This document shows positions 12,233-64,000 of a stretch of DNA of 64,000 nucleotides, piece by piece. The notes beneath the pieces were generated by a model. It was not told the DNA's origin, did no database searches, and saw nothing but the letters and a program-made list of their open reading frames with translations. The first letter of the stretch is position 1, and the number at the start of each line of letters is the position of its first letter. A program made the position numbers and the translations under genes. The DNA lies in NCBI RefSeq assembly GCF_053078305.1, contig NZ_CP166879.1; one strand, given 5' to 3'.

Positions 12233-12528
12233 GTCGCTCCGGCGACCACCAATGCTCCACAAGTGGCCTGAGAGGAGCGCCTTCGGGTGGCTACATGTCG
12301 CTTCGGCGACCACCAATGCTCCATAAGTGGTCTGAGAGGAGCGCCTTCGGGTGACCACATCCCGCTTCGGTGGGCACCAATGTTCCGTTGATCTGAGAGG
12401 AACGCCTTCGGGTGATCAACACCCCCGTAACCTGAAAGGGGATGTGCAGCCAGGATGTTTCTGGTGGTGGTAAATCTGCCCACCTTTGAGAGCAGATATC
12501 GTCAGTCATGACGATGAAGGTTTTCTTT
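12233..12528 (+). repeat. structured repeat element, copy 1 (three about 60-nt sub-units plus tail); candidate ncRNA
   Basis: Repeated hairpins with CTTCGG tetraloop motifs (GTCGC-TTCG-GCGAC etc.) and recurring CTGAGAGGA motifs. Near-identical to copies at 56604-56840 and 58871-59105. Confidence 0.5.
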
Positions 12529-39235: not shown

Positions 39236-39267
39236 AAAAGTCCAGTATAATTTATACTGGACTTTTT
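39236..39267. terminator. bidirectional rho-independent terminator after traG
   Basis: Perfect inverted repeat AAAAAGTCCAGTATA-ATT-TATACTGGACTTTTT, with A/T tracts on both sides. Confidence 0.65.
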
Positions 39268-39692: not shown

Positions 39693-39701
39693 TGAAGACA
39701 G

Positions 39702-42521: not shown

Positions 42522-42606
42522 TTTTTATTCCATTATTCATTGCGTTACGATAATGTTTAGTTTTTTAAACATCCCCCACCACATGTATGGGGATTGTTGC
42601 AAATCT

Positions 42607-42862: not shown

Positions 42863-43103
42863 TTTTTCTTATCCTCTGACGAACCTTTCGGTTTATTGAG
42901 TTATTGGCTCCTTCAGGTAACTCACCTTTGGCAAGTTTATCCAGTCCTGCCTGCTTCTGTTCCGAGGTGAGATTATTGGCATCAGCATACTGATTCCATG
43001 AGGAAACCGCCTGACCATAACTCACCATTCCTGATGGAAGACTGAGCGAGTTATTCTCAACAACAATCCTAACCGCAAAGGTTGGGATTGTTGTTAATCT
43101 CAC
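42846..43103 (-). CDS. orphan CdiA C-terminal fragment (VENN-containing, truncated)
   Basis: 85-aa ORF containing VENNSLS and a segment (SWNQYADANNLTSEQKQAGLDKLAKG) paralogous to the start of the main CdiA-CT; lacks the Gly-rich toxin core. Confidence 0.5.
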   Translation of the reverse strand: MRLTTIPTFAVRIVVENNSLSLPSGMVSYGQAVSSWNQYADANNLTSEQKQAGLDKLAKGELPEGANNSINRKVRQRIRKNETTI

Positions 43104-43348
43104 TCAGGATCTGATGGAGGTTTTTTACGAGAATTAAACTTATCGATCAGATTAAAAACTATCGCTGCTAGTGTTATCGATGTACCTGCTATGCACCCAA
43201 ACACAATAACTCTTATCATTTGGTGGGTCGGGAAAAAAAAGAATCCTTTTGTTAGGTAAATAAATAAAGCTCCTCCCCCCATCAAAAGAAATCCACTGAT
43301 GATACAAAAGAGGCATGCATATATGAACAATACAATGTAAGCAATCAT
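43100..43348 (-). CDS. cdiI: CdiI immunity protein (small two-TM membrane protein)
   Basis: 82-aa ORF whose start overlaps the cdiA stop (ATGA); two hydrophobic helices. Confidence 0.65.
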   Translation of the reverse strand: MIAYIVLFIYACLFCIISGFLLMGGGALFIYLTKGFFFFPTHQMIRVIVFGCIAGTSITLAAIVFNLIDKFNSRKKPPSDPE

Positions 43349-46300: not shown

Positions 46301-49300
46301 CCGGCACTGATACTGACCGTATCCCCGTTCAGTTCACTGCCCGTCATGGTCCGGCGGTCAGTGACATCATGCGTGGTTGTGGTGGTTTTCGATAACATCC
46401 CGCTGCTGCCGGTCACTTTATGGTATTCATCCAGCGAGCGGGTATTCTGTGCACCGGTCAGCGTCACGTCATGACCTGCCATCAGGGCCAGGCCTTTCTG
46501 AGCTGACAGCGATGCCGCCTGTGACGTCATATCCCGTCCGGCGGTCAGCGTGACATCACCGTTACCGGCAAGCGTGCTGCCCGTACTCTGTGTGACGCCC
46601 TGCGACAGACGATTATTTTTATCCCAGATAATATTGTCCTGCGCGGAAGTGGTCACTGTGGAAAGCGTCATATCCCTGCCCGCACTGAGTTGCGTCAGGC
46701 TGTCCTTACCCTGATTCACCACCGTTGCAGCCGTCAGATTCATATCCCGTCCGGCCTGCAGCACCAGTCTTCCCTGGTCGTTCTGCACATACACGCCGGC
46801 CACACTGTCGATACTGGTACGTTCAAAATGGTTCTGTCCGGCGTCGCGCTGTGCCGTACGGGTGGTGGTGGTCAGACTGATATCCCGTCCGGCCATCGCC
46901 AGCAGGCTGTCCGTGGCCTGCAGCAGCCCGCCGGTACTGTTAATATCCGTCCGGGCCGTCAGGCTGACATTTGCTCCCTGAATGGAGCCGGCCTGGTTGT
47001 GAATGTTTTCTGCACTGAGCTGCACGGTCTGCTTCCCGGCCAGTTTACCGCTGTTAAACAGGTCACCATCCAGCTTCATCACCATGTCCCTGCCGGCAAT
47101 CAGCGCACCGGCACTGTTCACATCACCGGGTTTTACACGGGCATACACCTGAGGTACCTGAACTGTCTGCGTGCTGCCGTCCGGCAGTGTCACCGTGGTG
47201 TTAACCAGCCAGACAATATCCCCGGTCAGTAACGCCATCTGCTCAGCCGTCAGCGCCACACCCGGTTTCAGGTTGTATTGCTTACCAAATGCAATACCCG
47301 CATCCATTAATGCCTTAAACTGCTCTTCATCACTGCCGTATCTGTCCAGGTACCGTTGCCCGGTCAGAGCGACAACCTGCTCTCGAATCAGACGCTGCTC
47401 GTAAAAACCGTCTCCCAGACGTTTGAGCATGTTATCCCCGTTCTGAGAAAACGCCTTCTGCATGTAATCACTGCCCAGCCACATCTTCTGGTTCGTAAAA
47501 CGCGGGTCCGTTTCAACCAGATATGGCACATTCACTGCCGGATTTGTTTTAAACAGACTGCTGTCCGGCAGACGGGTATCCGGCCCGGCAACATGGATAC
47601 TGCCCTGAGGTGTGCTGACTTCAAACTGCTGCCCCGGCAACAGAATGACCGGTTCACCGGCAGACACCACCGGGCGAAGCGGTATCCGGTCAGTAGCGGC
47701 TACTGCCGCATCCACATTTCCGGCCTGTCCTGTCTGTACATCCGTTCCCTGTGGCTTCAGAGGAGAAAGCGTGACCTGGCTGCCCTGAATCTGTCCGTGG
47801 CTGGTGAGCTCTCCCGGCTTCAGCGTAATGCTCTGAATTACAGTGGGCGGAGTGTACTGAGAGGTTTTCTCCCCCTGCTTATCCTTTCCTTTTTTCCTGA
47901 TACGGTAATAATACGTGGATGTTCCTGAGTCCGTAACATGCCGCTCGCCACTGACACTGACATTTTCCACGCTTCCTGACGGAATGGTCAGCAGGCCGCC
48001 TGCAACAACCTGACTCTTATCATTAAGCAGTTTGTCTGCCACAATCGTCATGCCGGCACCGGACAGAATTTTTCCCGGGTCGGAGTCTTTTACCCGGGTT
48101 TCTTCCACGGTACGGGTGTAATCATACTGCGTGAATTTATCTCTGGCGCCTTCCGGTGTATGCAGTTTTTTCAGTGAGTTACTGGAATCGTTATCCACAT
48201 AAACGCCCGGTTCACCGGCGCTCCAGCGTTTATCTGAGCCGCTGAGCTGATACTCAGTCACCTTTTCCGTGGAAACCACCACGCGCTCCGTGGTGAAATG
48301 GTCATTGACGTTATTGATTTGTCCGGCACTCAGTACCAGATATCCGGCGGCTTCAATAGTGGCACTGTGATTATTCAGTACACCGGCTTTCCCCGTGGCG
48401 GCACCATTCGCATCCAGCATGCCACCAGTATGCATATCACCTGCACTGTAAATCAGGCTGTGCGTCCGGTTATTCAGGGTCTGTACCCCTAAGTCCACAC
48501 GCTCACGCCCGGCCAGCGTCGCCGCCACGCCATTTTCTTCCAGATTATTAAATGTGGCAGCGCTGACACCAACAGCATCGCCGTAGATTCGCCCGGTACC
48601 GGAATTCGTCAGGGTGTTCGCCTGAAGATGCGTATATTTCCCGTCAATCAGCCCACGGTTCAGCAGTGTGTCCGTCACGTTAAGCCAGGTCTGCCCGGCA
48701 CTGATTTCACCTTTCTCTGTGTTTTCAAGGCGGATGCTGTTCAGGTCAAGCCGGCTGCCTGCCAGCAGGCTGCCGGTATTAGAGACATCGCCATTAACGG
48801 AAAGCGTAAGGTTTCCGTTCGCAATAGTCTGACCACTGTTGCTGAACGTTGTGTTACTTTTCAGCGTCATATCGCCCAGCGAAAGCAGTTTCCCGTCACC
48901 ACCGAGCTGACCGGCATCCACAGATACTGACTGCCCGGCCTTAACCACGCCGTCACGGTTCGAAAACGCCAGCTGACGGCCACTGACAGACAATGTCGCG
49001 CCGGAAGAGAGGACGCCGTCATTATTACTGAGCGTCCTGTCTGCCATAACCGTAAGCGCCCTGTCTGCCAGAATACTGCCCTCCTGGTTATCAAGGTCCT
49101 GCGTCGTGATGTGTATTGTCTGCGCTTCCAGCCCCTGACCGGTATTCTGCGTGTGGCGATTGATAAACTGCAGGGCGTTCAGCGTAATGGCGGAACCACT
49201 GCGAATCAGACCAGAGACGTTGTCCACAACGCCCCGTACACTGTTGAGCAACATGTCGCCCACAGACTGTATTTGTCCGTGGCTGTTCTGCAGACCTCCC

Positions 49301-52290
49301 GTATGCAGACGGAGTTCACCTTCACTGACCAGCCGGCCCCCCTCACGGTTATCCAGCGAGGTGGTGCTCAGGTCAGCTGTCGTTTTCGCCCCCACGGTCC
49401 CGCCCCGGTTATCCATTGCTCCGGTACTGACAGTCAGTTCCTGCAGGCTGTTCAGCGTACCGCGTCTGTTATCCAGCGTCTGGCCTGCGGTATTAATGCT
49501 GATACCCCTCCCCTGAATAAGACCGGACTGATTGTTCAGCGCCTGGCTGTTCCAGCCGAGCAGACCGTTTGCCACCATCTGACCGGATGTATTGTTAACC
49601 ACGCCTGCAGTCAGGGACAGAGCATCTCCCGACAAAAGCACACCGGCAGTGCTGTCCAGTGTGCCGGCATTCAGCGTCATCGGACCCTGACTGATAACCC
49701 CGCCCCGGTCACCACTATTACGGTTACTCAGTGTGTCAGCACGGAGATTCAGCGATGCACCGCTCTGTATCAGGCCGCCGGCATCGTTGATGATATCCGT
49801 CGAGGAAAGTGTCAGTGACTGCTGTGCCACCAGTCTGCCGCCCTGATTATCAAACCGTGTGACATCCAGCCTGCTGTTACCGTTGCTGACCACCGTCCCC
49901 TGCTGATTTTCCAGCACACTCAGGTGCGTATTCAGGTCCCCGCCGGCGGCAAGCGCCCCTTCCTGATTACTGACATCACCACCACTCAGCAACATATCCG
50001 TCCCGGCCTTCAGTGCGCCTTTCTGGTTCATCAGCGTACCTGACGATATCTGTAATGACGTCTGACTCCCCAGCACGCCCTGACGGTTATCGAGCGTTCC
50101 GGCGTTCAGGGTCATATCCTTCTGACCCGCCATAAATCCCTGCTGGTTATTCAGCATACCGGCCCGCACTGTCAGGGTACCGGCGCTGCTGATACCACCC
50201 CGTGTTTTCGTGTTCCGGTTACTGAGTACCCCGTCCTGTACATCCAGCGTCATGTCACTGCCGGACTGAATCAGACCATCATCAGAGACCAGTTCGCTGC
50301 CTGACACAGACAGCGTTTTCTGTGAAAGCAGTCTGCCGGACGTATTATCCAGCGCACCATCCAGCGTCACAGACAGCCCGTCAGCCACCACCGTACCCTG
50401 GTGGTTATTCAGATTCCCTGCCGAAATATCCAGCCTGCCGGCGGACTCCATTCGTCCCTCAGTATTGCTGACAGCCTGCTGTGTTTTTATCCTGCCCGTT
50501 CCGGCAGCAGCTGAAATCAGTCCGTTGTCGTTATTCAGCGCCTGTGTATTAATCAGGATGTCACGGCTGGCAAGCAGACGTCCCTGCTGGTTATCCACGG
50601 CGCCGGTTGTCCTCACCTGCAGACTGCCTGACTGCGCCGCCTGCACTTTCCCCCTGCGATTATCAAGGCTCAGTGCATCCAGACGCACCGCGCCATTTGC
50701 CGCAAACAGCCCTTCCCGGTTATCCACGCTTCCCGGCAGACTCAGCGAAAAATCCCCTGTTCCCGTCTGAGTCAGACTGCCTTTACGATTTGACAGGCTT
50801 TGTGCCGATATCTGCAGTGTGTCGGCATTTATCGTGCCACCATTATTGCTGAAGTGCCCGACAGTCCGGGCGGAAAGCGTACCGGCACTCAGTTGCGCAT
50901 TCTGTGTGGACAGATTTCCACTGGTTGCATCCAGCTCAGTATGTTGTCCCTGTATCCGGCTGTTGCTTAAATCCAGCCCCTGCCCCTTCAGTTGCATGTC
51001 CCCACCGGACAGAACCTGTCCGTGTGCCGCCAGTTCGCCGGTGGTACTGACAGTCAGGTTGCCCGCTGCCGCCAGACGTCCGTCATCTTTCACCCCGGCG
51101 GCCAGCAGACTCCGCTCACCGCCGGTCAGACGCGCTGTCTGAATCCGGGTGTTGCGACGTGATGCCACAGAGCCTGTATGGGTGAAGACACCATCACTCT
51201 GTATCTGCGTATCCTGCCCCGCATAAACAGAACCACTGTTATGCAGCTCCCGGGTTGTCGCCAGATGCACATCCGTTTTCGCACTGATACTGCCACTGTT
51301 TTCAATACGTCCGTCAGCCGTCAGGGTAACCGCCCCTGCCTGTGCACCAATATGACCGGCGTTACGAACACCCACCCCCGTTTCCGTACCGACAAGGCGA
51401 ATTTTTCCGGCATACATTCCGCCAAGACTGGCCACATCCAGTGCCATCTGAGGCTGTGAAGAGACATCACCGGTCTTTTTCTCAATCTGCCCGTGCGCGA
51501 TATCCACATTGTTACGTCCTGTGGTCACTTTCAGATCCTGCGCCCAGATACCCGCATTAATCTTCACAGACCGGGCAATGATATCGGTATAATCCGTGCG
51601 CGAGGCATCCATCCCTTTGCCCGTAACCTGAATCTCACCACGTTCAACACTGAATCCGGTCAGACTGCCGTTTTTCATCTGCGGCTGCCCCGTGGTCAGC
51701 GTGGCCCGGTTCGCATTAATAAAACCGCACCCGTCGCAACTGATGCCGGCCGGGTTCGCAATCACCACCTGCGCCTTTTTACCGGCAACCTCAACAAAAC
51801 CGTTCAACTGGCTGGGATTGCGACTGTTCACTTCATTAAGAATGATTCTGGCCTCTCCCTTAGCCAGCCACGGGTTCCCGGCCACCATGCCACCCAGTTG
51901 AGTCTGCACATTGTTATGGGCATTATTCAGAATGACGCCCTGGTTACCGACGTCGAACTGGCTGTATGCGTTATGTGAAACCCCGCCGGCAGAAGGCGTC
52001 TGAATATTCACCTGCGGAATGCCGCTGGCCGTCTGCGTAATCGTGGGCTGCTGATACCCTGGTGCGCCATGGTCTGCGACAATGCCTGCAGCACTGACAG
52101 AATGCACCATCCCCGAAGCCAGCCACAAAGAGAATGCAAGCGGCGTGACACGGCAGATACGTTGCCTGTGTGGATATCCTGTGCGGGAGGACAGTGATGT
52201 ACCGGCGCGACCGGAACGGGCAATATCTGCCACCACCATCAGCATTCCCCGGGCTTTGTTAAAAATAATGCGGTAACAATTTCTGTTCAT
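43345..52290 (-). CDS. cdiA: CdiA, contact-dependent growth inhibition exoprotein (TpsA/filamentous-haemagglutinin family)
   Basis: 2981-aa ORF; extended TPS signal peptide MNRNCYRIIFNKARGMLMVV, TPS domain with NPAGISCDGCGFIN, long haemagglutinin-type repeats, VENN motif at 44002-44013, then a 218-aa Gly-rich hydrophobic C-terminal domain (43348-44001). Confidence 0.9.
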   Translation of the reverse strand: MNRNCYRIIFNKARGMLMVVADIARSGRAGTSLSSRTGYPHRQRICRVTPLAFSLWLASGMVHSVSAAGIVADHGAPGYQQPTITQTASGIPQVNIQTPSAGGVSHNAYSQFDVGNQGVILNNAHNNVQTQLGGMVAGNPWLAKGEARIILNEVNSRNPSQLNGFVEVAGKKAQVVIANPAGISCDGCGFINANRATLTTGQPQMKNGSLTGFSVERGEIQVTGKGMDASRTDYTDIIARSVKINAGIWAQDLKVTTGRNNVDIAHGQIEKKTGDVSSQPQMALDVASLGGMYAGKIRLVGTETGVGVRNAGHIGAQAGAVTLTADGRIENSGSISAKTDVHLATTRELHNSGSVYAGQDTQIQSDGVFTHTGSVASRRNTRIQTARLTGGERSLLAAGVKDDGRLAAAGNLTVSTTGELAAHGQVLSGGDMQLKGQGLDLSNSRIQGQHTELDATSGNLSTQNAQLSAGTLSARTVGHFSNNGGTINADTLQISAQSLSNRKGSLTQTGTGDFSLSLPGSVDNREGLFAANGAVRLDALSLDNRRGKVQAAQSGSLQVRTTGAVDNQQGRLLASRDILINTQALNNDNGLISAAAGTGRIKTQQAVSNTEGRMESAGRLDISAGNLNNHQGTVVADGLSVTLDGALDNTSGRLLSQKTLSVSGSELVSDDGLIQSGSDMTLDVQDGVLSNRNTKTRGGISSAGTLTVRAGMLNNQQGFMAGQKDMTLNAGTLDNRQGVLGSQTSLQISSGTLMNQKGALKAGTDMLLSGGDVSNQEGALAAGGDLNTHLSVLENQQGTVVSNGNSRLDVTRFDNQGGRLVAQQSLTLSSTDIINDAGGLIQSGASLNLRADTLSNRNSGDRGGVISQGPMTLNAGTLDSTAGVLLSGDALSLTAGVVNNTSGQMVANGLLGWNSQALNNQSGLIQGRGISINTAGQTLDNRRGTLNSLQELTVSTGAMDNRGGTVGAKTTADLSTTSLDNREGGRLVSEGELRLHTGGLQNSHGQIQSVGDMLLNSVRGVVDNVSGLIRSGSAITLNALQFINRHTQNTGQGLEAQTIHITTQDLDNQEGSILADRALTVMADRTLSNNDGVLSSGATLSVSGRQLAFSNRDGVVKAGQSVSVDAGQLGGDGKLLSLGDMTLKSNTTFSNSGQTIANGNLTLSVNGDVSNTGSLLAGSRLDLNSIRLENTEKGEISAGQTWLNVTDTLLNRGLIDGKYTHLQANTLTNSGTGRIYGDAVGVSAATFNNLEENGVAATLAGRERVDLGVQTLNNRTHSLIYSAGDMHTGGMLDANGAATGKAGVLNNHSATIEAAGYLVLSAGQINNVNDHFTTERVVVSTEKVTEYQLSGSDKRWSAGEPGVYVDNDSSNSLKKLHTPEGARDKFTQYDYTRTVEETRVKDSDPGKILSGAGMTIVADKLLNDKSQVVAGGLLTIPSGSVENVSVSGERHVTDSGTSTYYYRIRKKGKDKQGEKTSQYTPPTVIQSITLKPGELTSHGQIQGSQVTLSPLKPQGTDVQTGQAGNVDAAVAATDRIPLRPVVSAGEPVILLPGQQFEVSTPQGSIHVAGPDTRLPDSSLFKTNPAVNVPYLVETDPRFTNQKMWLGSDYMQKAFSQNGDNMLKRLGDGFYEQRLIREQVVALTGQRYLDRYGSDEEQFKALMDAGIAFGKQYNLKPGVALTAEQMALLTGDIVWLVNTTVTLPDGSTQTVQVPQVYARVKPGDVNSAGALIAGRDMVMKLDGDLFNSGKLAGKQTVQLSAENIHNQAGSIQGANVSLTARTDINSTGGLLQATDSLLAMAGRDISLTTTTRTAQRDAGQNHFERTSIDSVAGVYVQNDQGRLVLQAGRDMNLTAATVVNQGKDSLTQLSAGRDMTLSTVTTSAQDNIIWDKNNRLSQGVTQSTGSTLAGNGDVTLTAGRDMTSQAASLSAQKGLALMAGHDVTLTGAQNTRSLDEYHKVTGSSGMLSKTTTTTHDVTDRRTMTGSELNGDTVSISAGHNLNVTGSSVAGDNRVSLAAGNDLSIGTLTESNRETHLKQEKKSGLMSSGGVGFSVGSQSLKVTDTATDSTQKGSTVGSVHGDVSLQAGNRLSANSADLIAGRDMALSGKEVSISAVTDRHVQTHSVEQKTSGLTLALSGTVGSALNTTVETVQAAKSAGNSRLEALQGVKAALSGAQAVQAGRLAEAQGNQKENNNAVGISLSYGSQSSKSEQQSEQTVAKNSALTAGNNLSIQATGSGVKDVDGDLTIQGSQIKAGNNVLLQANRDVNLVSAENTSKLEGKNSSSGGSVGVGIGVGAGGWGISVSASANQGKGSEKGNGTTHTETTVDAGNRLTIISGRDTTLTGVQAGGETVKVDAGRHLTLTSEQDSDRYDSKQQNASAGGSFTFGSMSGSASVSLSRDKMHSNYDSVQEQTGIFAGRGGFDVTTGQHTQLNGAVIASTATADKNRLDTGTLGFRDIENRADYKVEHQSVGISTGGSIGGQFAGNMANNLLVGANHEGHAESTTQSAVSAGNITIRDTQSQKQDVADLNRDAAHANQTLSPIFDREKEQQRLQQAQLIGEIGNQVADIARTEGQIAGEKAKRDPAALNQAREELEAAGKPFTEQDVAQRAYNNGMAASGFGTGGKYQQAIQAATAAVQGLAGGNLSAALAGGAAPYIAEIIKQTTPDGAGRVAAHAVVNAALSLAQGKNALAGAAGAATGEVVGMIATQMYGKPVSELSGTEKQTVSTLATVAAGLAGGLVGDSGASAVAGAQSGKTTVENNALSFGDGFESNAAAATSWNKYAVDNNLTPEQTQAGLDKIAKGDMPDSTNITKVIVDGYQDGVMIAGAWYLGPAASVGKMVSGGVVAEIANGSYQWFDLSQPGNENKNWDWKSSASSGIAGMLAPGRTVGQNVGIAMGGAFFTDGPNTGSIGGAAAGAGLGGAFGVYAPGIVNSVTGKEFPGFIFDATGSFGSEFLGGYIKEASSNNQFSSSAKKEEGK

Positions 52291-52842
52291 TCTGATAAAC
52301 CTGACTTATCTCTCCGGCACATCCACAGCAAGCGGGTGCTGCACACGCCACTGGCGCGCCTCTTCACGACTGACCTGTGCACCCCGGAAATTCATCACCC
52401 GTAACCCGGTCTGCTGCCCACGGTGGTACAGCGAACGCCAGCACAGACGGGGAAAAATATCCTGCCGGACAAGACGACTCATATCCGGAGTGTGTCCAAA
52501 AGGGGCAACCCAGTCACAGACCCACATCCGGTCGCCGCTGTTCCAGTCCGACTGAGGCATGAGAATTGCCGGCTGCGTAAGATAACGCGCCTCTGCCTCC
52601 GGGCTGAGCCAGGCCTGGCTCATGAAGAAAACCGGTCGCCCCTGCTCTGTTGCCACCACATACTGTCGGTGCTTAATCACCGGCAGCTGCAGGTCCGGCA
52701 GGGTATGCAGTGGCGCATCACGATGCAGGGGGGAGTGCATCCACAACCAGACGGCCGCCCCCAGGACTTCCGCCTCATTGACCGGCTCACCGGAATACAG
52801 GGGACTCAGAACGTCATATTTCCCGTTACGCATGAAACTTTC

Positions 52843-54582
52843 TCAGAAATCCCGGAACAGATTAAAACCGGCTGTCACATCACTCGTCATAAAACCCGCC
52901 GGCTTTGAAAACGGACGACCGATGAAAACGTCATAATCCGTACTGAACAGTTGCCCCCTCAGCCCCACAACACCACCGGCCAGATGACGTCCCACCAGAT
53001 ATTCACTGCCGGCTCCCCCCACCTCGCCGTAATCCATTCCCAGATATAACGCCTGCTCCGGCAGTGGCGTACGCCAGGCCAGGTCGTTGCGGATATACCA
53101 GCCGTTACTGGCATTCAGCGTTCGCTCCCCGTCAAAACCACGAACCGTCCAGCGGTTACCGATGGCAAACTGTTCCTGTGGGGTCAGCGGGGTATTGCTC
53201 AGCTGGCGCTGATACCGGAAGGAATAACTGAAGGGCTGCTCTGCCAGTGTAAAGGGCAGATTAAAGGATGCATTCATCTGCAGGATCTTACTGAGCGCCG
53301 TTGCCTCACCGAAGATTTCCTCCGGTGCCGGCTGTGCACCAAACCAGCGGGTTCCCCGTTGCCAGCTGACACCAGCATCCAGTGTGGCCTGAGAAATATA
53401 ATGACGGTGCTGCAGCCCAAGTCGCCAGGCCGCTGTCTGCCGGCGCTGCACCTGGATTTCCGTATCATTAATGTAGTTACGCGACCTGCGGGCCTGAACA
53501 TCGTAAGTCAGCACCGTTTTCTGCGTCCCGTTACGATGCAGTACCCGGCTCAGCTGCATGCCCAGATTCTGACTCTCGCCACTGTACTGGTAATCCTCAA
53601 CCGCACCAGCTACCGTCTGATGGTAATCGTAATCACTGGCGGTGACGGAAAACTGCCAGTAACCGAAAGGCACAGAGTAATGGGCCGTGTAGTTTTTACT
53701 GCCCTTACCCCCGTAATGTGGAAAATTATGGGTGGCAGAAACATACAGCAGGTCACTCAGGGAAAAAGGATTATCCAGAGAAAATGTTATACCACCGAGA
53801 TAACGCCCTGTGCTGCGGGTACCTGAATCATCAAGCGAAAACCCCAGTCGCCAGTATTTATCCTGTTTACGGGTAATAAGAATATCACTTTCCCCTGGCT
53901 GCTCACCGGGCACAATTTCCATATCAGCCTGCACACCCGGCAGTCGTTGCATATTCTCCAGCCCCTGCTCAATGTCCCGTAAATCCAGCAGAGAACCTTC
54001 GTGTGCCGGGAATGAGGAATACAACTGAATATAGTCATCACTGTCCGGTGTCAGACGCACATGTCGCACAACACCGGGAATAACAACCAGCCGGAGGATA
54101 CCGCTTTTTAAATCCTGCGAAGGTGCCAGAACACGGGTGGTGACATAACCATGATCGACAAGACGGTTCTGCAATGTACTCATCAGCAGATTAATTCCTT
54201 TCGCCCCCAGGCAATGCCCGACCGCCCCGTTGGCGATTTTTTGTAAAGGCAGCCAGTGTGGTAACGCATCAGCCCCCTTCAGTTCCGTCTGTTTAATCTG
54301 AAAACAGGGCGTTTCAACAGGAAAATTAATCTTATGGGCAAAAGAGCCAGGTGCAGAAAGGCGAACATCAGGGGCTGAAGGCGTCAGTTGTTGCTCAAGG
54401 GCTTCCTGACGCTGCTGCTGAATGATAAATGTATCCTCTCCACTACGCCGGATATCCGCGGCCTGAAGAGATAAAGGCGATAATAAAACAGACATCAGTG
54501 TCAGTGATAAAATGAACGGACAGCGCCGGAATAAGCTTTGTTCCTCAGCCCTCTCGTTCCTGCAACATAATTTTCCAGCCAA
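52843..54582 (-). CDS. cdiB: CdiB, TpsB-family outer-membrane transporter
   Basis: 579-aa ORF directly upstream of cdiA on the same strand; signal peptide, POTRA-like region and C-terminal beta-barrel ending ...FNLFRDF. Start may instead be at an internal Met (about 54495). Confidence 0.85.
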
Positions 54583-56444: not shown

Positions 56445-56603
56445 TTATCTCAGAATAAACATTGATGAATGGTAATAACAGGGACTGTTAATACTGTCCC
56501 TGTTATTTTTTCTGCAGACTGTTTTCTGTTCTTCCTGGTTATGTTCTGAGTGATGATGATTGACGCCTTTTATACGCTCTGATATGCTCAGAATGCATTA
56601 TCT

Positions 56604-56840
56604 GTCGCTTCGGCGACCACCAATGCTCCATAAGTGGTCTGAGAGGAGCGCCTTCGGGTGGCCACATCCCGCTTCGGTGGGCACCAATGTTCCGTTGATC
56701 TGAGAGGAACGCCTTCGGGTGATCAACACCCCCGTAACCTGAAAGGGGATGTGCAGCCAGGATGTTTCTGGTGGTGGTAAATCTGCCCACCTTTGAGAGC
56801 AGATATCGTCAGTCATGATGATGAAGGTTTCTTTTAACCG
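56604..56840 (+). repeat. structured repeat element, copy 2; left direct repeat flanking the recombinase module
   Basis: Near-identical to 58871-59105 and to the last two sub-units plus tail of 12233-12528; the similarity continues about 20 bp past the element. Confidence 0.55.
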
Positions 56841-57467
56841 CGCCCTTTATTACGGGCAATACACAGCAGTGGTTGTGTGATCCTTATCTATCCGGTGATG
56901 CCGGAATGTTTTTACTGCGTAATGGCGGTATTGACTTCTTTTATTCTTTTCATTTGTTTGCCAGCACTTCCTGCGACTGTGCGCGCTGTATAAGACCATT
57001 TGAAATTTGGTCGCTTACGCGTGTACCTGGCGTCTGAAGCTGCGCGGCGTCACTTTCGTCAGCGTGTCACGATGACAAAGTGACGCACGCGCGTCTGCTT
57101 AACGAACCCGCACGAACTGCCGTTTCACGTGATGTTTTTTAACATTTGAAGAAGTGACCCGGCGTGAGAGTGTTTTTTCAACCTCTTCTGCAAATTTACG
57201 GACGATTTTGTGAATAACGTCCATAAATGGTTTTTTGCAGAATTAATTGTTTTTTAAGGAGTTTTATGTAGTGAGATGCCGAATCGGCGATACCACTTAT
57301 TAGAGGTGGTGTCGGGGGCGACCTGGAGACAGGTACAGCAAATGCTGCAGTCGGTGTGCAACACCGATTTGTTACCCCTCAATACCTAAACAATCTGCGC
57401 TACCCTGGCGCACAGGCAGTCACTACCCGAAGGATCGCAACGTTTAACCGTGTCGTCAGGGAGAAAT

Positions 57468-57518
57468 GCAGATGAGTTTTTCTGTTGTGTTCACGGCACA
57501 ACAGAAAAACTCATCTGC
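57468..57518. other. perfect 22-bp inverted repeat with 7-bp spacer; candidate recombinase target site
   Basis: GCAGATGAGTTTTTCTGTTGTG-TTCACGG-CACAACAGAAAAACTCATCTGC, about 50 bp upstream of the recombinase start; no T tract after it, so not a typical terminator. Confidence 0.6.
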
Positions 57519-57567
57519 CGAACGTACAGCTGTTTAAGGTAAAAATTATTATGTGCAGGAGAAGTTG

Positions 57568-58470
57568 ATGTCCAGACGTGAAAAATTACTGAAACAGGAT
57601 CTGGTTGCTCACATTCGAAAAGACAAAGGCAGCTTCAAGAAGCTGAGTGATTACACCAGGATCATGCACCGCTTTGCTGAAAGTCTGGCAAAAATGAATG
57701 TACAGATCAGTTCTGCCGCGCAGGTAAAAGTCCGGCATATTGAGCTATATATGAGAAGCCGGAGTAATGTTTCTGGGCGAACAAGGGAAAATGAAATGTC
57801 TGCAATACGGGTTATGTTACGTCAGGCAGGTAAATATAAGATGGCTGATCCCGAACATCCTCGTCTCAGCAATAAAGCGTTAGGCATTTCCGGCTCCAGT
57901 CGTAAGGGAACAAAAAAATTAATCACGGATGAGCGTTTTCGGGAGATTCTTCAGCGTGTGGAAGCAAAAGATAAAGGGGTGGCTGCTGTTGTTAAACTGT
58001 CACGTTACCTCGGTCTGAGAAATGAAGAAGCTATCCAGTCGGCCAAATCATTACGAACCTGGAAAAAAGCGTTACAACGGGGAGATGAAAAAATAAGAGT
58101 GATTTTTGGTACGAAAGGGGGACGGGAAAGAATGACAACGGTTGTTGACCGGGATAACGTTCTTGATGCTGTTAATTATGCACTCAAATATGCCAGTGAA
58201 CATAATGGACGTCTTATAGACAGAGATAATCTTAAGTCGGCAATGGATTATTATCTTAATACATTACGTCGTTATGGAGAACTGAAAGGCGGAGATGAGA
58301 CTGCACACAGTTTTCGGTACAGTTACGCTGCAAGTGCCATGAAATATCATATTATGAACGGTTACAGTTATAAGGAGGCACTTGCACTGACATCAATTGA
58401 TCTTGGTCATGGTGATGGCAGAGGACGATATATTGAACAGGTTTATTGTCAGTTGTTAGGCTATGAGTAA
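57568..58470 (+). CDS. tyrosine recombinase / phage-integrase-family protein
   Basis: ORF track 57553..58470 (GTG); ATG 57568 after AGGAGAAG RBS. Catalytic-domain-like motifs: LGLRNEE (Arg I), HSFRYSYA (H-x-x-R) and a C-terminal RGRY region. Confidence 0.6.
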   Translation: MSRREKLLKQDLVAHIRKDKGSFKKLSDYTRIMHRFAESLAKMNVQISSAAQVKVRHIELYMRSRSNVSGRTRENEMSAIRVMLRQAGKYKMADPEHPRLSNKALGISGSSRKGTKKLITDERFREILQRVEAKDKGVAAVVKLSRYLGLRNEEAIQSAKSLRTWKKALQRGDEKIRVIFGTKGGRERMTTVVDRDNVLDAVNYALKYASEHNGRLIDRDNLKSAMDYYLNTLRRYGELKGGDETAHSFRYSYAASAMKYHIMNGYSYKEALALTSIDLGHGDGRGRYIEQVYCQLLGYE

Positions 58471-58502
58471 TAACTCATGGCGATTTCGTACGGGTAAATA
58501 TT

Positions 58503-58826
58503 ATGGATTGTACTATTTTGCTGAAAATAATCTCTGTAAAAGAGATTACAAAAAATTCGCCTTTGTGGTCACACTATCTGGCGCGATATGTTGATTCCGG
58601 ATATCAGGCCGAGTTTGAATGTGAAGGAACAGCAGATAAATGGGATATCTATGATGAATGGGACATCTATGAATCCATTGCGGATTATTTTGATGTGGTA
58701 GGAGATTTTAACTGTGATGTCAGATGGTCGGGAAGAAAAATACTGATTAAAGGGACCTGTGTTTTTCCTCTGGGAGAACCCGTTAAGGGAATACATAATA
58801 TTCCTCTTTGGATTGATGTTGAATAA
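58503..58826 (+). CDS. hypothetical protein
   Basis: 107-aa ORF, AT-rich, downstream of the recombinase. Confidence 0.35.
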   Translation: MDCTILLKIISVKEITKNSPLWSHYLARYVDSGYQAEFECEGTADKWDIYDEWDIYESIADYFDVVGDFNCDVRWSGRKILIKGTCVFPLGEPVKGIHNIPLWIDVE

Positions 58827-58870
58827 CTTGACATTCATCTTTTGTGATTTAAAAATATACAGGCTTATAT

Positions 58871-59105
58871 GTCGCTTCGGCGACCACCAATGCTCCATAA
58901 GTGGTCTGAGAGGAGCGCCTTCGGGTGACCACATCCCGCTTCGGTGGGCACCAATGTTCCGTTGATCTGAGAGGAACGCCTTCGGGTGATCAACACCCCC
59001 GTAACCTGAAAGGGGATGTGCAGCCAGGATGTTTCTGGTGGTGGTAAATCTGCCCACCTTTGAGAGCAGATATCGTCAGTCATGACGATGAAGGTTTCTT
59101 TATAA
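58871..59105 (+). repeat. structured repeat element, copy 3; right direct repeat flanking the recombinase module
   Basis: Near-identical to 56604-56840. Confidence 0.55.
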
Positions 59106-59227
59106 CTGCGCCCTTTATTAACGGGCTTTTTCTGACAGCAACACCATGCTGTACTGGTGGTGTTTTAACCCTGACGGGAGTTTTTGTCCGTCGGGGCGAA
59201 GGCTCCCGTTTTTTTACAGGAGTCTTT

Positions 59228-59620
59228 ATGTCAACGTTTATTTTGTGCCCTGAACCGGGCATCTCTTCTTTTTTCCGGCGAATGACGGCTCAGTTGCGGG
59301 TGTTTTTTTCCCGCAATAACCTGTCATATTACAGTCGCTGGTACACTAATCCGGCCGGCAATCTGAGCGTGCGGGTCTGTATGTTCCGTCGTGGCGGTGT
59401 CTGGACACCCTGCCTGTATTACCGGCAGGGAATGTATCGCAACGAGTACACAGGATGGTATCAGCCGTTACCGCGTGAGGTCATTTATCTGAACCGGTTT
59501 ACCGGACGGATATCCCGTCGCAGGACATGGCATGCTGCCTGCCGTATGGCGGAGCAACTGACCACCCTGCGTTACCGGTTTGGTCTGCAGGGTGATGGAA
59601 TCGTCGCACAGCCCTGCTGA
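59228..59620 (+). CDS. hypothetical protein
   Basis: ATG 59228 after AGGAG RBS; preceded by a CCCTGACGG...CCGTC(A/G)GGG hairpin leader. The ORF-track entry 59060..59620 begins inside the repeat. Confidence 0.4.
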   Translation: MSTFILCPEPGISSFFRRMTAQLRVFFSRNNLSYYSRWYTNPAGNLSVRVCMFRRGGVWTPCLYYRQGMYRNEYTGWYQPLPREVIYLNRFTGRISRRRTWHAACRMAEQLTTLRYRFGLQGDGIVAQPC

Positions 59621-59702
59621 TTTATCATTTATTACCCTGTCGGGAACACGCTTCCCGCAGGGCAGGTGTGTTCCCGTTATTTTTTGTATCTGAGGTGAAC
59701 AC

Positions 59703-60182
59703 ATGCATAGTCTGTTAATACTCCTTTACGTTGTTGTATGGCGTGCCTGCACCATTCTTCGGGTAATCGCACCAGTGTCGGCTGTCCGTGCGTGGTGTGA
59801 GTATCAACTGGAAGGTATGACGATACTTCGTGATGCGTACAGCTCGCTGGCTAAGGCGGCTGGAATGCAGAATGATGCATTTGAATATACTGAAAGTATT
59901 GCACGTCATCTGGGCTACAAAAGCGGTGGTGACCAACTGAAATCAGGACTTTTCCGGCCGTTTCTGTGGCATATACGTGTGAAAGGCCACAGGCTGGGGG
60001 CTGTCATGGAGATGGAGGCATGGAAGACATGGAAGAATGGCTGTAACGATGTCTGCAATCCATGGGAGGATGTCTGTAATCCATGGGAGCGTGGATGGAA
60101 CGATGGCTGGACGGAATGTCTGAATCAACGTATAGCCGGGCTCCTGAAGCAGGCCTGTATTGAATTTTCCGACGCAGACTGA
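59703..60182 (+). CDS. hypothetical protein
   Basis: 159-aa ORF with GAGGTG RBS. Confidence 0.45.
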   Translation: MHSLLILLYVVVWRACTILRVIAPVSAVRAWCEYQLEGMTILRDAYSSLAKAAGMQNDAFEYTESIARHLGYKSGGDQLKSGLFRPFLWHIRVKGHRLGAVMEMEAWKTWKNGCNDVCNPWEDVCNPWERGWNDGWTECLNQRIAGLLKQACIEFSDAD

Positions 60183-60377
60183 CGGGCAGGATGCCAGTCA
60201 GTCACAGGAAGGATGTCAAATCGTGAGCGATGCAACTGCCATTTTGCAATGATGGCTGTTTTGCTCCCGTAACGGTTTTTCTTTTACTTACTGCACCGTG
60301 TTTTTGCGCCGGTGTTTTCCCTGACGGGAGTTTTGTTCCGTCAGGGACAGGACTTCCTTTAAGAGACGGAGGTCATC

Positions 60378-60755
60378 ATGTATTCACCTTTAATTGCTCA
60401 TTATTCAGCGCTTCAGACGCAGTCTGCTCTGCTGGCTCATATCAGTCAGATGGAAGGCGAGCTGATGCGGTTACGTGCCTGGCAACGGCTGGGTATTACC
60501 CCGGAGCCGGATGATGAGACGGAGCCTTCACTGGTATACGTGTATCTGTGGGATACCGGCGAGGCGCTGGGCTGGCTGTTGTATGACCTGGAGCAGGAGG
60601 AGATTTCCGCACCGGGAATTCAGGCCCGTCAGGCACTCGACAGTCTGATGGCTCTGGGGCGTGAAATTAATCATGAAATCTGGGCTGACAGTATCAGTAC
60701 CGGAAAGATGGTGGCCGGAGCGGATGAATATTTTGCCCGGCACGACATGATGTAA
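60378..60755 (+). CDS. hypothetical protein
   Basis: 125-aa acidic ORF with GGAGG RBS; same hairpin leader as 59228. Confidence 0.45.
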   Translation: MYSPLIAHYSALQTQSALLAHISQMEGELMRLRAWQRLGITPEPDDETEPSLVYVYLWDTGEALGWLLYDLEQEEISAPGIQARQALDSLMALGREINHEIWADSISTGKMVAGADEYFARHDMM

Positions 60756-60836
60756 TTCATGACCTGACTCTGACGGGGGAGTTCTCCGTCCGGGAGACAT
60801 TCCCCGTTGTTTAGTTTTAACCATGAGGAATGTTCC

Positions 60837-61466
60837 ATGTCTGAGTTATCTTCACGTCCGGTCCGTGAGCCGGTGGTATATACCCTTGAGCAGGTTTCCA
60901 CAATACCGGAAAAGCAGTGGCATGCTTTTGTTCTGGCTGTCACTGAAACCTTCTGGCAGTTGCCGGAGGCGTTACGGCCGCAGAATGCGTATTTCGGCTC
61001 CCTGACCCGGGCGTCAGAGTTGTTTCCGGTAACGGACACGCTGGCGTTTTACTGCCGGTCTGCCGACGGGCTGTGGTCGGTGAATGTCACTATTGAGCGG
61101 GAGCACAGCCGGAATATCCTGGCTCTTAATGAGCTGAATTTCGGACGTCAGCCGGGAGATTTCTTTGCCCGTACAGTCTTTGTGCTGTTGCACAATCTGT
61201 GTCCGGACTGTTTTCGTATTCATTCCACTGTCGGTGGTGCCAGCTGGTCGCTGCCGCTGAAATGGATAAAACGGTACCTGGGGCATGAGAATTTTTCTGC
61301 TCCGGAGTCTGTATTAACCACCCCGGTAAGGGGAGATGCGTTTGACAGCTTACTGCTGCAGTTTTTGTCCGGTCAGGGGCGACAGTTATCCCCGGATGAC
61401 TGGGCAGCACTGGAAGAGGCCGAATATCAGCTTTACTGGCTGCGGGCTCTTGCCGGTGGGCGGTAA
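60837..61466 (+). CDS. hypothetical protein
   Basis: ORF track 60807..61466; ATG 60837 after GAGGA RBS. Confidence 0.45.
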   Translation: MSELSSRPVREPVVYTLEQVSTIPEKQWHAFVLAVTETFWQLPEALRPQNAYFGSLTRASELFPVTDTLAFYCRSADGLWSVNVTIEREHSRNILALNELNFGRQPGDFFARTVFVLLHNLCPDCFRIHSTVGGASWSLPLKWIKRYLGHENFSAPESVLTTPVRGDAFDSLLLQFLSGQGRQLSPDDWAALEEAEYQLYWLRALAGGR

Positions 61467-61581
61467 CAGAACGCCGTAGTTTCTTTATCCGGAATAACGT
61501 CATCACGTATTCCGTCATTATATCACCCGGCAGGGACATATCCCTGTGGGGAGAGTCCCGGCTTTATTCAGGAGAATTGTT

Positions 61582-61965
61582 ATGGGACTCGATATTTACT
61601 TTCTGGCTCGTGATAACCATCACAGTGGTGCCGTTGTGGGAACACAGGAACATCAGGAGGTGGGGGCTTTCCGTAAGGTGAAACCGCTTCTGACATGGTT
61701 TCGTGAACATACCGGTGCTTCAGATGAGCAGCATGCTTTCCCTGTAACCCGCAGTTCACTGGCTGCATTATTGCGCGACCTCAGTATGCTGACACCGGGG
61801 AACTGCCACAGGCTGTTTCCTTATGTCACAGGCTCGTGTTTACGGGGGGAAGATTATGCCGGTGATTACTGGTATGACGTGGATGACGTAAAAGCGTGGG
61901 TCAGCAATACGCTGAAGACGTTTGATTTTGAGCGTCGTTCACTGGTGATGCTGGCGTTGTGGTAA
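61582..61965 (+). CDS. hypothetical protein
   Basis: ORF track 61546..61965; ATG 61582 after AGGAG RBS. Confidence 0.45.
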   Translation: MGLDIYFLARDNHHSGAVVGTQEHQEVGAFRKVKPLLTWFREHTGASDEQHAFPVTRSSLAALLRDLSMLTPGNCHRLFPYVTGSCLRGEDYAGDYWYDVDDVKAWVSNTLKTFDFERRSLVMLALW

Positions 61966-62057
61966 TTCTGGCCAGTCTGATTTTCGTTATTAATTTAACT
62001 GTACGGTGCACTCTCACCGTACAGGGAGCGTGCATCTTTTTCAGGGGGCATGCTCTT

Positions 62058-63035
62058 ATGAAAACGAAAAAACATACTTCACGTACCGCGATTAAAACTC
62101 CGGAACGTGACCTGTATCAGCTTGTGACCGACAGGGTTGTTACGGCCATTGAAAATGGTGTGCCACCCTGGAAACGTCCCTGGCGCTCTGCGCGTAATGG
62201 CGTGGGGCTTCCGGAGATGATGCCGGCAAATGCCCTGACCGGGAAGCCTTATACAGGGGTGAACGTCCTGTTGCTGTGGCTGGCCGCGGATGAAGCCGGG
62301 TATGTCAGCAATGACTGGCTGACGTACCGTCAGGCGCAACAACTGGGTGGCCACGTCCGTAAAGGGGAGGTGGCCACGCTGGCGGTGATTTACAAAGACT
62401 GGAAAAAACAGGCTGTGGATGAACACGGTAACCGGCTGACGGACAGTGAGGGGGAGCCTCTCATGGAAATCGTACCGGTACTGAAATCGAATCCTCTGTT
62501 TAATGTGGGGCAGTGTGACGGTTTACCTGAACATCTGATGGTGAAGGCGGAAGGCAGCGCGGATGCACTGCCGGCAGATACCTTCAGTGAGCGGGTGCTG
62601 CAGGTACTGAATGGCAGCGGCGTCAGCGTCTCGTCACTTCCACAGGACAGGGCATTCTACCGGCCTGATCTTGACCGTATCGTGATGCCACTGTCGTCGC
62701 AGTTTGACCAGGTGGCTGATTACTGGACCACCCTGCTGCATGAGCTGGTACACAGTACCGGTCATGAAAAGCGCCTGCGGCGGGTGGGGATAAGTACCTT
62801 TACCGGTCGCAAAAGCCCGGAATATGCGTTTGAAGAGCTGATTGCCGAGATGGGCAGTGCTTTTCTGTGTGCACATCTCGGGATTGCCGGTGACGTACAG
62901 CACGAAAGTTATATTGACGGATGGCTTAAGGTTCTGAAGTCTGACAAAAAAGCGCTGTTTCGCGCCTGCCGGCAGGCACGTGAAGCATCAGAGTATTTAC
63001 TGACGCGGCGAACTTCGCAGGAGTGCGCAGCATAA
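62058..63035 (+). CDS. ardC: ArdC-like antirestriction protein (N-terminal ssDNA-binding domain plus zincin-like metallopeptidase domain)
   Basis: ORF track 61959..63035; ATG 62058 after AGGGGG RBS. HELVHSTGH (HExxH) motif in the C-terminal domain; N-terminal ...ENGVPPWKRPW... pattern typical of ArdC. Confidence 0.7.
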   Translation: MKTKKHTSRTAIKTPERDLYQLVTDRVVTAIENGVPPWKRPWRSARNGVGLPEMMPANALTGKPYTGVNVLLLWLAADEAGYVSNDWLTYRQAQQLGGHVRKGEVATLAVIYKDWKKQAVDEHGNRLTDSEGEPLMEIVPVLKSNPLFNVGQCDGLPEHLMVKAEGSADALPADTFSERVLQVLNGSGVSVSSLPQDRAFYRPDLDRIVMPLSSQFDQVADYWTTLLHELVHSTGHEKRLRRVGISTFTGRKSPEYAFEELIAEMGSAFLCAHLGIAGDVQHESYIDGWLKVLKSDKKALFRACRQAREASEYLLTRRTSQECAA

Positions 63036-63148
63036 TTTTTACTACCGGTGGCGGTTATAACCTGACCGCCATTTATCCCGTGAGGGCATTGTACCTCACG
63101 GGACAATGCCCTCTTTTTACATCTGTATAAAAAAGAGGAGCGTAAACA

Positions 63149-64000
63149 ATGTCTGAATGGTGCAAAAACCGTTTTGAAATTACCGGTAAATCAGTCTGTC
63201 TTGATGTACTTACACAGTGGATTGAAGGGCGTGAGACCCCGCGCTACCGTCATGCCATACAGCAGAGTATACAGCTGTTTCTGGCCGGTTGTGCAGGGCT
63301 GGTAAAACCCACACGGACGACGCAGTATCCGCCATATCCGGCGCTGGTTCGTCAAGGAACGGGGTTGTCATCTCCGGCTAACCAGGCGTTTGAGCAGTGG
63401 CTGGGGTTGCTGGTAAAAAATGCCGTTCTGGATGGTGAAACGATAAAGACCATTGAGCGTCTTTATCACCAGTCATGTATCGGCGCTGTTCGCTGGGGTA
63501 ATCTGCCGGATAATGCCAGGGAGATCATCACCACGCTGATGAGCCGTCAGTATTCTGACTGGTTTGGTCTGGCCGGGCTGAGTGAACACATTGATGCAGA
63601 AGCCTGCTGGAGCTGGTTGTCGGATTACCCGGAACAGGCGCAGCCCTGTGACATGCTGATGGTCATACCCTCCCGTCTGGCTACAGAGCTGAATGGTTCA
63701 GGTGGACTGCTGCAGGGTATTTCCACAACGACCAGCCTTTACAGCCGGATATACGGTGTGGAGTGGCCGTCAGGAAATAATGTTCGCCATGCGCGTGATG
63801 AGATGAGCAGTCTGGTGCTGCTGATCGACACGCCCTGGTATCCGCCTTCAGGCGAACTGGTTGGTGAGATCTCGAAGGTGTTTGACTGCGAGGTCCGACA
63901 CTGGTACAGCGAGCCGGTACACGGTATACAGGGTTACAACTGTTACGATGGCGGAGAGCATACGGACAGTGATCTGCAGGCCGAATGGCCGGGCAGGGAA
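63149..64000 (+). CDS. hypothetical protein, 3' end truncated by window edge
   Basis: ATG 63149 after AAGAGGAG RBS; frame open through position 64000 (284 codons, no stop), so absent from the ORF track. Confidence 0.5.
   Translation, partial: MSEWCKNRFEITGKSVCLDVLTQWIEGRETPRYRHAIQQSIQLFLAGCAGLVKPTRTTQYPPYPALVRQGTGLSSPANQAFEQWLGLLVKNAVLDGETIKTIERLYHQSCIGAVRWGNLPDNAREIITTLMSRQYSDWFGLAGLSEHIDAEACWSWLSDYPEQAQPCDMLMVIPSRLATELNGSGGLLQGISTTTSLYSRIYGVEWPSGNNVRHARDEMSSLVLLIDTPWYPPSGELVGEISKVFDCEVRHWYSEPVHGIQGYNCYDGGEHTDSDLQAEWPGRE

Follow-up and report, generated by a model that had tools for sequence, protein, structure and literature searches.

An establishment and anti-restriction operon of an SGI-4-like integrative and conjugative element, in a setting that links the STAXI and EFASI RNA motifs to a probable transfer origin

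Introduction

SGI-4 and SGI-4-like elements are integrative and conjugative elements (ICEs) with a type G mating-pair formation system (MPF_G) that reside at tRNA-Phe (Branchu et al. 2019, PMC6543542). Compared by described layout, the element treated here agrees with them in carrying, in the same order, parA/parB, topB, ssb, a GI-type type IV secretion system (T4SS), a second 'Xer-like' recombinase, a UvrD-like helicase, TraI and an integrase at tRNA-Phe. It differs in its cargo, which is metal resistance in SGI-4 and a 2981-aa two-partner-secretion exoprotein with a HlyC-type acyltransferase here. The element lies in a 64,000-nt stretch of Escherichia coli DNA (NZ_CP166879.1, assembly GCF_053078305.1), hereafter called the window, and the present analysis concerns the interval from 56.5 to 64 kb, all genes of which are on the + strand. 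The feature is an ICE establishment and anti-restriction operon, in a setting that links two orphan RNA motifs, STAXI and EFASI, to a probable origin of transfer (oriT).

These motifs have been known as orphans since 2010 and 2017, respectively. The name STAXI describes a neighbourhood of Ssb, topoisomerase, antirestriction and integrase genes (Weinberg et al. 2010; Rfam), EFASI is defined by its location between STAXI and integrases (Rfam RF02957), and MPF_G ICEs are described in the literature as rich in STAXI. Transcripts of both were detected by reverse-transcription quantitative PCR in vesicles of Shiga toxin-producing E. coli (PMC12370729). To that extent the STAXI–EFASI–integrase arrangement itself was already known. 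What is added here is a promoter for each STAXI copy, an attenuator after the second copy, 98% identity of three copies within one element, an invariant inverted repeat between STAXI and EFASI, and the retention of STAXI and this repeat in elements that lack a relaxase.

A second point of comparison is the mobilisation module of SGI1, in which the small RNA sgm-sRNA is essential for transfer and is followed by mpsA (PMC6414798, PMC9299015). According to a preprint (bioRxiv 10.64898/2026.01.13.699239), MpsA of SGI1, MobK and TcpM belong to a class of tyrosine-recombinase-like relaxases, MOB_M, that is abundant and often annotated as integrases; 44% of MOB_M relaxases are tied to MPF_G ICEs, with the relaxase on one side of the oriT and the MPF genes on the other. 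The same preprint counts the TAI islands of O157, which have no relaxase, among the 'oriT-only' hitchers and likens their oriT to that of SGI-4.

A conserved block of the ICE backbone

We read the interval as the DNA-processing and establishment block of an SGI-4-like (MPF_G) ICE, in which a mobilisation module of MOB_M type is followed by a STAXI-led ArdC operon, and on balance we consider this reading probable. The host element is an SGI-4-like, MPF_G-type ICE, located at tRNA-Phe in the closest genome. The window is most similar (99.6%) to the chromosome of E. coli O22:H8 strain 154 (locus L001), the annotation of which comprises a GI-type T4SS, a relaxase, an integrase and a tRNA attachment site; the ends of the ICE fall outside the window. 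In this chromosome the block is flanked on one side by TIGR037xx/PFL_4703-type conjugation genes, and is followed by an N6-methylase, cargo, a UvrD-like helicase, a TraI_2 relaxase of the MOB_H class and the integrase at tRNA-Phe.

The order promoter, STAXI, GC-rich inverted repeat, EFASI, Integrase_1 gene, STAXI, attenuator hairpin, zero to five variable small genes, H209-like gene(s), ArdC and DUF1281 is common to seven elements, namely the window, L001–L003, Erwinia psidii L005, the metagenomic L008/L009 (counted as one), and L010. ArdC is 61% identical to that of the window in E. psidii and 52–57% identical in L008/L009 and L010. L002, a 91%-identical E. coli relative, served as reference for the ratios of non-synonymous to synonymous substitution rates (dN/dS) given below. 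Past DUF1281 the relatives continue with an N6-methylase, a variable slot and then the UvrD/TraI_2 genes.

The earlier note had described the interval as a second island. This is a misnomer because the base composition of the block (GC 0.51–0.55) and its layout are those of the ICE backbone, as in SGI-4-like elements, and the block is common to E. coli, Erwinia and metagenomic elements. The interval is no separate island; it belongs to the conserved backbone of a conjugative element of E. coli. The genes that the note described are present, but its account overlooked the non-coding content at the start of the interval, i.e. two STAXI, one EFASI, the invariant inverted repeat and a 17-bp terminator.

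A probable mobilisation module and its candidate transfer origin

The first part of the interval (56.56–58.83 kb) would constitute the mobilisation module. It opens with a sigma70-like promoter (56560..56588, +; TTGACG-17-TATGCT), predicted to drive the STAXI-1 RNA, and continues with the first copy of a 237-nt repeat (56598..56834, +) that contains the STAXI motif (56603–56768; Rfam RF01728, 90.9 bits against a gathering score of 40.5). Downstream follow a GC-rich inverted repeat as putative oriT core (57043..57093), the EFASI RNA motif (57268..57425, +; Rfam RF02957, 53.2 bits against a gathering score of 51.2), a perfect 22-bp hairpin (57468..57518, +) between EFASI and the ribosome-binding site of Int1, and Int1 itself (57568..58470, +), an Integrase_1-type tyrosine recombinase of 300 aa and the candidate MOB_M (tyrosine-recombinase-like) relaxase. 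Both motifs thus exceed their gathering thresholds and stand in the textbook neighbourhood of Ssb, topoisomerase, antirestriction gene and integrase: two STAXI RNAs flank Int1 and one EFASI lies just upstream of it. EFASI directly precedes the Integrase_1 gene in seven of seven elements and in a Salmonella island, and scores 85–113 bits in the same position of the relatives. The 22-bp hairpin stays perfect in L002 by way of two compensatory double substitutions. With no U-run behind it, this hairpin is no terminator, and it may serve as a site for RNase III or for protein binding.

The inverted repeat is the one invariant feature in an alignment of the STAXI–EFASI spacer from seven loci. Its core, GCGTCACTT-N22-AAGTGACGC at 57047–57086, occurs once in the window, where none is expected by chance, and once in each of nine related loci, among them the O157 TAI island and the 5.3-kb plasmid pGF4-F, both without a relaxase. 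GC content is 0.60 at the repeat against 0.36–0.45 in its flanks. About 660 E. coli records, including O157:H7, match the window at 56598–57459 only, that is, in the STAXI-to-EFASI stretch, which in O157 is located in the urease/tellurite (TAI) island and is truncated by IS66. These observations point to the inverted repeat at 57047–57086 as the probable core of an oriT.

Two small carriers were observed in addition. E. coli plasmid pGF4-F (L013, 5333 bp) has two rep genes and, at 4270–4735, a STAXI-like stretch with the GCGTCACTT...AAGTGACGC repeat; no mob gene, EFASI or Int1 was found on it, and it is a candidate oriT-only mobilisable plasmid. In Salmonella Infantis CP148755 (L012), a small island beside tRNA genes (11763–16036) contains an EFASI of 113 bits, a disrupted Int1 homologue, a DNA methyltransferase gene following that pseudogene, a ParA-family gene and a SIR2-family gene. 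CP148755 is labelled as a 500-kb plasmid, yet has chromosomal housekeeping genes.

The layout of this part of the interval appears to mirror that of SGI1, i.e. promoter, terminator-like site, oriT, sgm-sRNA and mpsA. Likened by layout, both have a strong promoter soon followed by a terminator-like site, an oriT region of 60% GC bearing an inverted repeat, a structured small RNA and a tyrosine-recombinase-like gene, all co-oriented (PMC6414798, PMC9299015), and by this analogy EFASI would be the counterpart of sgm-sRNA. The two systems differ in that MpsA needs a separate MpsB whereas Int1 has its own SAM-like N-domain, in that no SGI1 counterpart of STAXI has been described, and in that SGI1 is an integrative and mobilisable element dependent on IncC plasmids whereas the element in the window is an ICE.

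Int1 as a candidate relaxase

Int1 matches PF12835 (3e-55) and PF12834 (5.5e-22), and is under strong purifying selection (dN/dS 0.07 against L002). Its DNA_BRE_C domain has the R-K-H-R-H set and a tyrosine nucleophile: R151, K183, H247, R250, H281 and Y288/Y293 are invariant among five homologues of 48–96% identity. Likewise, the location is the one that the preprint describes for MOB_M relaxases, as Int1 comes after the T4SS and cargo, with the conserved inverted-repeat region ahead of it. From the preprint and from the retention of the neighbouring repeat in relaxase-less elements, we infer that Int1 most likely acts as a MOB_M-type relaxase beside its oriT.

Several points weigh against the reading of this module as a relaxase with its oriT. 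The MOB_M assignment of Int1 draws on residues, location and the preprint, and the inverted repeat is matched to an oriT only indirectly. Int1 also departs from MpsA in having an N-terminal SAM-like domain of its own, and no literature link of PF12835 to relaxases was found. The EFASI of the window is only just over its threshold, and for none of the small genes downstream could a link to defence be detected. Finally, the ICE also has the TraI_2 relaxase of the MOB_H class, the proven relaxase type in the related ICEclc, given which Int1 may be dispensable or have another role.

Such a role could be that of an ordinary site-specific recombinase, e.g. a resolvase for multimers of the excised, replicating ICE that acts on the STAXI repeats or on the inverted repeat and leaves the MOB_H TraI as sole relaxase. 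The complete tyrosine-recombinase domain set of Int1, including the N-terminal SAM-like core-binding domain, would fit this, as would the separate MOB_H relaxase, the direct repeats that flank Int1, 98.5% identical in the window element, and the replication of related ICEs after excision (PMC6561031). However, recombination between direct STAXI repeats would delete the int gene, and yet the arrangement is stable across genera. Moreover, STAXI and the inverted repeat are kept in relaxase-less islands and a small plasmid, as expected of a cis-acting transfer site, and the preprint assigns such ICE 'integrases' to MOB_M. We therefore regard a resolvase as an unlikely identity for Int1 and retain that of a MOB_M-type relaxase.

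STAXI copies, their promoters and an attenuator

The second 237-nt repeat (58865..59101, +) contains a STAXI motif at 58870–59035 (RF01728, 93.6 bits) and is preceded by a sigma70-like promoter (58828..58856, +; TTGACA-17-AAAAAT). A third STAXI, of four units (12234..12525, +; 76.2 bits), lies outside the interval between topB and DUF3577 with ssb. The copies in the window match the full length of the RF01728 model and consist of tandem pseudoknot units. Copy 1 is 98.5% identical to copy 2 and 98.3% identical to the 12.3-kb copy; over 236–260 nt the three copies are 98.3–98.8% identical, while the ICE backbone is about 9% off its nearest relatives. Within other elements the copies are 82–93% alike, and orthologous copies differ by many compensatory changes. 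The near-identity of the three copies would imply gene conversion or co-adaptation to a shared partner, i.e. concerted evolution. A recent insertion of the STAXI pair as a cassette was considered and rejected: int is flanked by two STAXI in seven of seven elements, including the Erwinia and metagenomic relatives, where the copies are only 82–93% alike.

Promoters were examined for seven STAXI copies (three in the window, two in L002 and two in Erwinia), and in all seven a sigma70-type -35/-10 pair ends 13–15 nt before the first STAXI hairpin, in flanks that are otherwise unrelated. Between STAXI-2 and the first gene downstream, E130, lies an intrinsic terminator or attenuator (59173..59217, +), a 17-pair stem with G-U pairs followed by U7, which ends 2 nt before the Shine–Dalgarno site of E130. 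It is conserved with covariation in Erwinia, and hairpins are found at the same place in other relatives. As there is no space for another promoter between attenuator and E130, expression of the operon needs read-through. The second part of the interval, from 58.83 kb to past the end of the window, would accordingly be named a second STAXI-led transcription unit, the genes of which would be expressed only by read-through of the strong terminator directly before the first ribosome-binding site. A further recurring hairpin, CCCTGACGG-N10-CCGTCAGGG, is seen at 12569–12598, 59170–59197 and 60321–60348 of the window, i.e. upstream of the first gene after STAXI-3 and after STAXI-2, and again before the small gene G125.

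It may be asked whether STAXI works as RNA at all, since Weinberg et al. raised the possibility that it functions as single-stranded DNA (ssDNA). It would then act as a folded element on the transferred strand, in priming or as a single-strand origin for complementary-strand synthesis in the recipient. Three co-oriented STAXI are distributed around the ICE, near ssb, topB and ArdC, STAXI is kept beside the inverted repeat in relaxase-less elements, and each STAXI unit has a conserved CTG, all of which would suit such a function. On the other hand, a sigma70 promoter stands at a fixed distance from every STAXI copy, the UUCG tetraloops and G-U pairs favour RNA, and STAXI transcripts have been detected (PMC12370729). 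An ssDNA role in place of an RNA role thus appears improbable, and STAXI is treated below as a transcribed leader.

The ArdC operon and the leading-region question

This second unit would comprise the variable small genes, the H209/I127 pair, ArdC and DUF1281; beyond the window end it would continue with an orphan N6-methylase and a defence hotspot of variable content. ArdC (62058..63035, +), which the earlier note had recognised as an ArdC-like gene with an HExxH metallopeptidase and an ssDNA-binding domain, is genuine. It combines an ssDNA-binding ArdcN domain (PF08401, 1.7e-36, residues 18–148) with the zincin protease domain MPTase-PolyVal (PF18818, 5.4e-38), in which the motif HELVH aligns to HEATH of R388 ArdC, and as a 45% class homologue it matches R388 ArdC (PDB 6I89/6SNA) over the full length at E 7e-60. 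The two proteins agree in two-domain architecture and HExxH (PDB 6I89; PMC7213743); the difference from the ArdC of R388 (IncW) is that the present one is chromosomal and ICE-borne, and always stands after an H209-like gene and before DUF1281/Api92. By analogy with R388 (PMC7213743), it would protect incoming DNA from type I restriction by the recipient. The further conserved gene that the note saw running off the window (63149..64000, +, cut by the window end) comprises DUF1281 and DUF1281_C and matches Api92 (PDB 2IJR) at 4e-116.

An orphan N6_Mtase lies just beyond the window end in L001 and at the same place in L005. The slot between the N6-methylase and UvrD/TraI is a variable defence hotspot (L002 14492–18803, L005 9377–13690, L003 14620–18337), occupied in E. 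coli L002 and Erwinia L005 by a type II cyclic-oligonucleotide-based antiphage signalling system (CBASS; CD-NTase, E1/E2, JAB, 2TM-SAVED) and in L003 by an AAA ATPase and helicase pair. L008/L009 have nothing in this slot; their ArdC is four genes away from, and upstream of, the UvrD-helicase/TraI_2 pair. Two distant elements (L001 36930–36960, L008 12495–12520) have a conserved motif, GTAYAGAGTT(A)T(T)TGYGGTGG, about 60–80 bp ahead of their UvrD-helicase/TraI_2 operon; it may be a promoter or a second origin.

The earlier note compared the cluster to the leading region of plasmids and ICEs. The ArdC operon lies about 5 kb from the inverted repeat, upstream of and pointing toward UvrD/TraI_2, and which side it takes depends on the origin considered: relative to the MOB_M-type origin at the inverted repeat and Int1 it is on the relaxase side and by the usual convention would enter last, whereas relative to the MOB_H relaxase (UvrD/TraI_2) it is on the leading side. 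With a MOB_H origin next to traI, the ArdC cluster would be a classical leading region, and overall the leading-region claim is no more than plausible. The comparison holds in that a recognised anti-defence gene, ArdC, is present, with the orphan N6-methylase past the window in L001 and L005 and transfer-origin machinery in the neighbourhood; it fails for the Frpo-like ssDNA promoter. None was found in template-strand DNA folds of the three promoter regions, where the only structure was a weak one from the first STAXI hairpin, and an ordinary sigma70-type promoter precedes each STAXI instead of one of Frpo/ssi type. With the anti-defence islands of plasmid leading regions (Samuel et al. 2024, PMC11541004) the locus has in common an anti-restriction gene, an orphan methylase, an SSB elsewhere in the element, many small genes of unknown function and co-orientation; it differs by the missing Frpo-like promoter and by the position of its small genes between conserved anchors in an ICE backbone.

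A stricter version would hold that this is a classical plasmid-type leading region, with the ArdC cluster entering ahead of the rest and Frpo-like ssDNA promoters driving its transcription before the second strand is made. Relative to UvrD/TraI_2 the cluster is indeed opposite the relaxase side, it points toward the relaxase genes, as in F, it is just four genes away in compact relatives, and ArdC, methylase and defence hotspot match what has been described by Samuel et al. (PMC11541004) and in a preprint. Against this, no template-strand hairpin rebuilds the -35 and -10 boxes, the inverted repeat/Int1 origin has the cluster on its relaxase side, and leading regions of MOB_H systems are, according to the literature, not callable in silico. 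The strict form is thus quite doubtful, and the cluster is better described as the STAXI-led establishment operon of the ICE.

Small genes of the operon

The five small genes announced in the earlier note, E130, F159, G125, H209 and I127, are all present, with GGAG/GAGG-type Shine–Dalgarno sites 5–9 nt before the ATG. The term RBS-coupled does not apply, as intergenic gaps of 81–195 bp holding hairpins or terminators leave no translational coupling. The dN/dS of the small open reading frames (ORFs) against L002 is 0.13–0.67, so they are real genes under purifying selection, which is weakest in F159 and I127.

Of the small genes, only H209 (60837..61466, +) and I127 (61582..61965, +) accompany ArdC without exception. 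H209-like proteins are universal in the seven elements and are duplicated in L008/L009, and I127 is homologous to a domain that relatives carry at the C-terminus of their H209-like proteins, namely in the Erwinia ORF L005:4226-5251 and in P0026/P0027 (hhalign probability 93%, E 3e-7 for I127 against the fused C-terminal domain). The fusions suggest that H209 and I127 form the two halves of a single functional unit found together with ArdC. H209 belongs to a very small family, of 31 representative clusters among 1.84 billion proteins. The predicted models are confident (pLDDT 87 for H209 and 82 for I127, AF2), and neither matched a characterised fold: the structural likeness of H209 is limited to three unnamed phage proteins, and I127 gave no decisive fold match. 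Homologues of I127 with 26–30% identity occur in SSU5/pLF82-like phage-plasmids.

The remaining genes are less widely distributed. E130 (59228..59620, +), a basic protein of 130 aa (pI 10.5) with a dN/dS of 0.22, is confined to E. coli and Erwinia, with a 35%-identical homologue in the latter, and is absent in L008–L010. F159 (59703..60182, +), G125 (60378..60755, +) and orf107 (58503..58826, +) are confined to E. coli in the seven-element comparison. F159 is variable, has the highest dN/dS (0.67) and contains an internal 21-bp tandem duplication (60048–60089) that encodes DVCNPWE twice. G125 is acidic (pI 4.4) and variable, and matches phrog_22073, of unknown function, at 1.4e-6, with no PDB match. 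The acidic, variable orf107 (pI 4.5), which lies between Int1 and the second promoter, has no family match and is replaced or absent in the Erwinia and metagenomic relatives. A weak match of E130 to STING (E 0.003, no stretch passing) was treated as compositional.

Searches of the small genes against Pfam, NCBIfam, PADLOC, PHROGs and PDB sequences returned nothing usable or significant. The suggestion that they form an anti-defence set finds no backing in likeness to a known anti-defence protein, either in sequence or in fold, and there is equally no homology to toxin–antitoxin or metabolic families in these databases. The toxIN system has the layout promoter, tandem pseudoknot repeats, terminator and toxin gene, which STAXI-2, the attenuator and the basic 130-aa E130 resemble, but a type III toxin–antitoxin-like unit with STAXI as antitoxin RNA was rejected as extremely improbable, as the STAXI units diverge and covary in place of forming near-identical repeats, the gene after STAXI varies (DUF3577, EFASI/Int1, X116, H-like), and E130 matches neither a ToxN/CptN/TenpN-type toxin nor another toxin family and is absent in L008–L010.

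Cargo and other observations in the window

The cargo at 43345–54582 (-) is a two-partner-secretion system with the 2981-aa exoprotein and a 579-aa TpsB-like transporter, between which lies a gene for a HlyC-family (RTX-toxin-activating) acyltransferase (52306–52833), an unusual pairing. The closest genome has Hcp/DUF2778 genes at this position instead. The region at 39000–43300 is of low GC (0.34–0.41), holds a 364-aa ORF without Pfam match and a DUF2569 gene, and was probably acquired on its own as cargo. Directly after ssb, the ICE backbone has a Transposase_31 (YhgA-like) gene (14031–14951).

Discussion

Taken jointly, the observations allow a wider reading, which we offer tentatively and regard as possible but rather doubtful in its entirety. 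STAXI and EFASI would be working parts of MOB_M mobilisation modules, with EFASI as the counterpart of sgm-sRNA, and STAXI together with GCGTCACTT...AAGTGACGC would form the cis-acting origin region. Hundreds of carriers, namely E. coli islands without a relaxase (O157 TAI) and small plasmids, would have copied this region so as to hitch-hike. Three establishment units, those of ssb, the relaxase and ArdC, would be regulated jointly by the same STAXI leader through terminator read-through, and H209/I127 would be an obligate partner of ICE-type ArdC.

ArdC and small genes of unknown function near transfer functions are an ordinary feature of ICE backbones, and the value of this locus lies in its surroundings. 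The constant company that H209/I127 keep with ArdC makes them better candidates for functional work than their variable neighbours. STAXI and EFASI are tied to a probable transfer origin and to an integrase-like relaxase of a recently recognised class, very abundant in Enterobacteria, and the 40-bp invariant repeat at 57047–57086 is a concrete candidate for the minimal region by which SGI-4-like ICEs and the O157 tellurite/urease (TAI) island would be mobilised.

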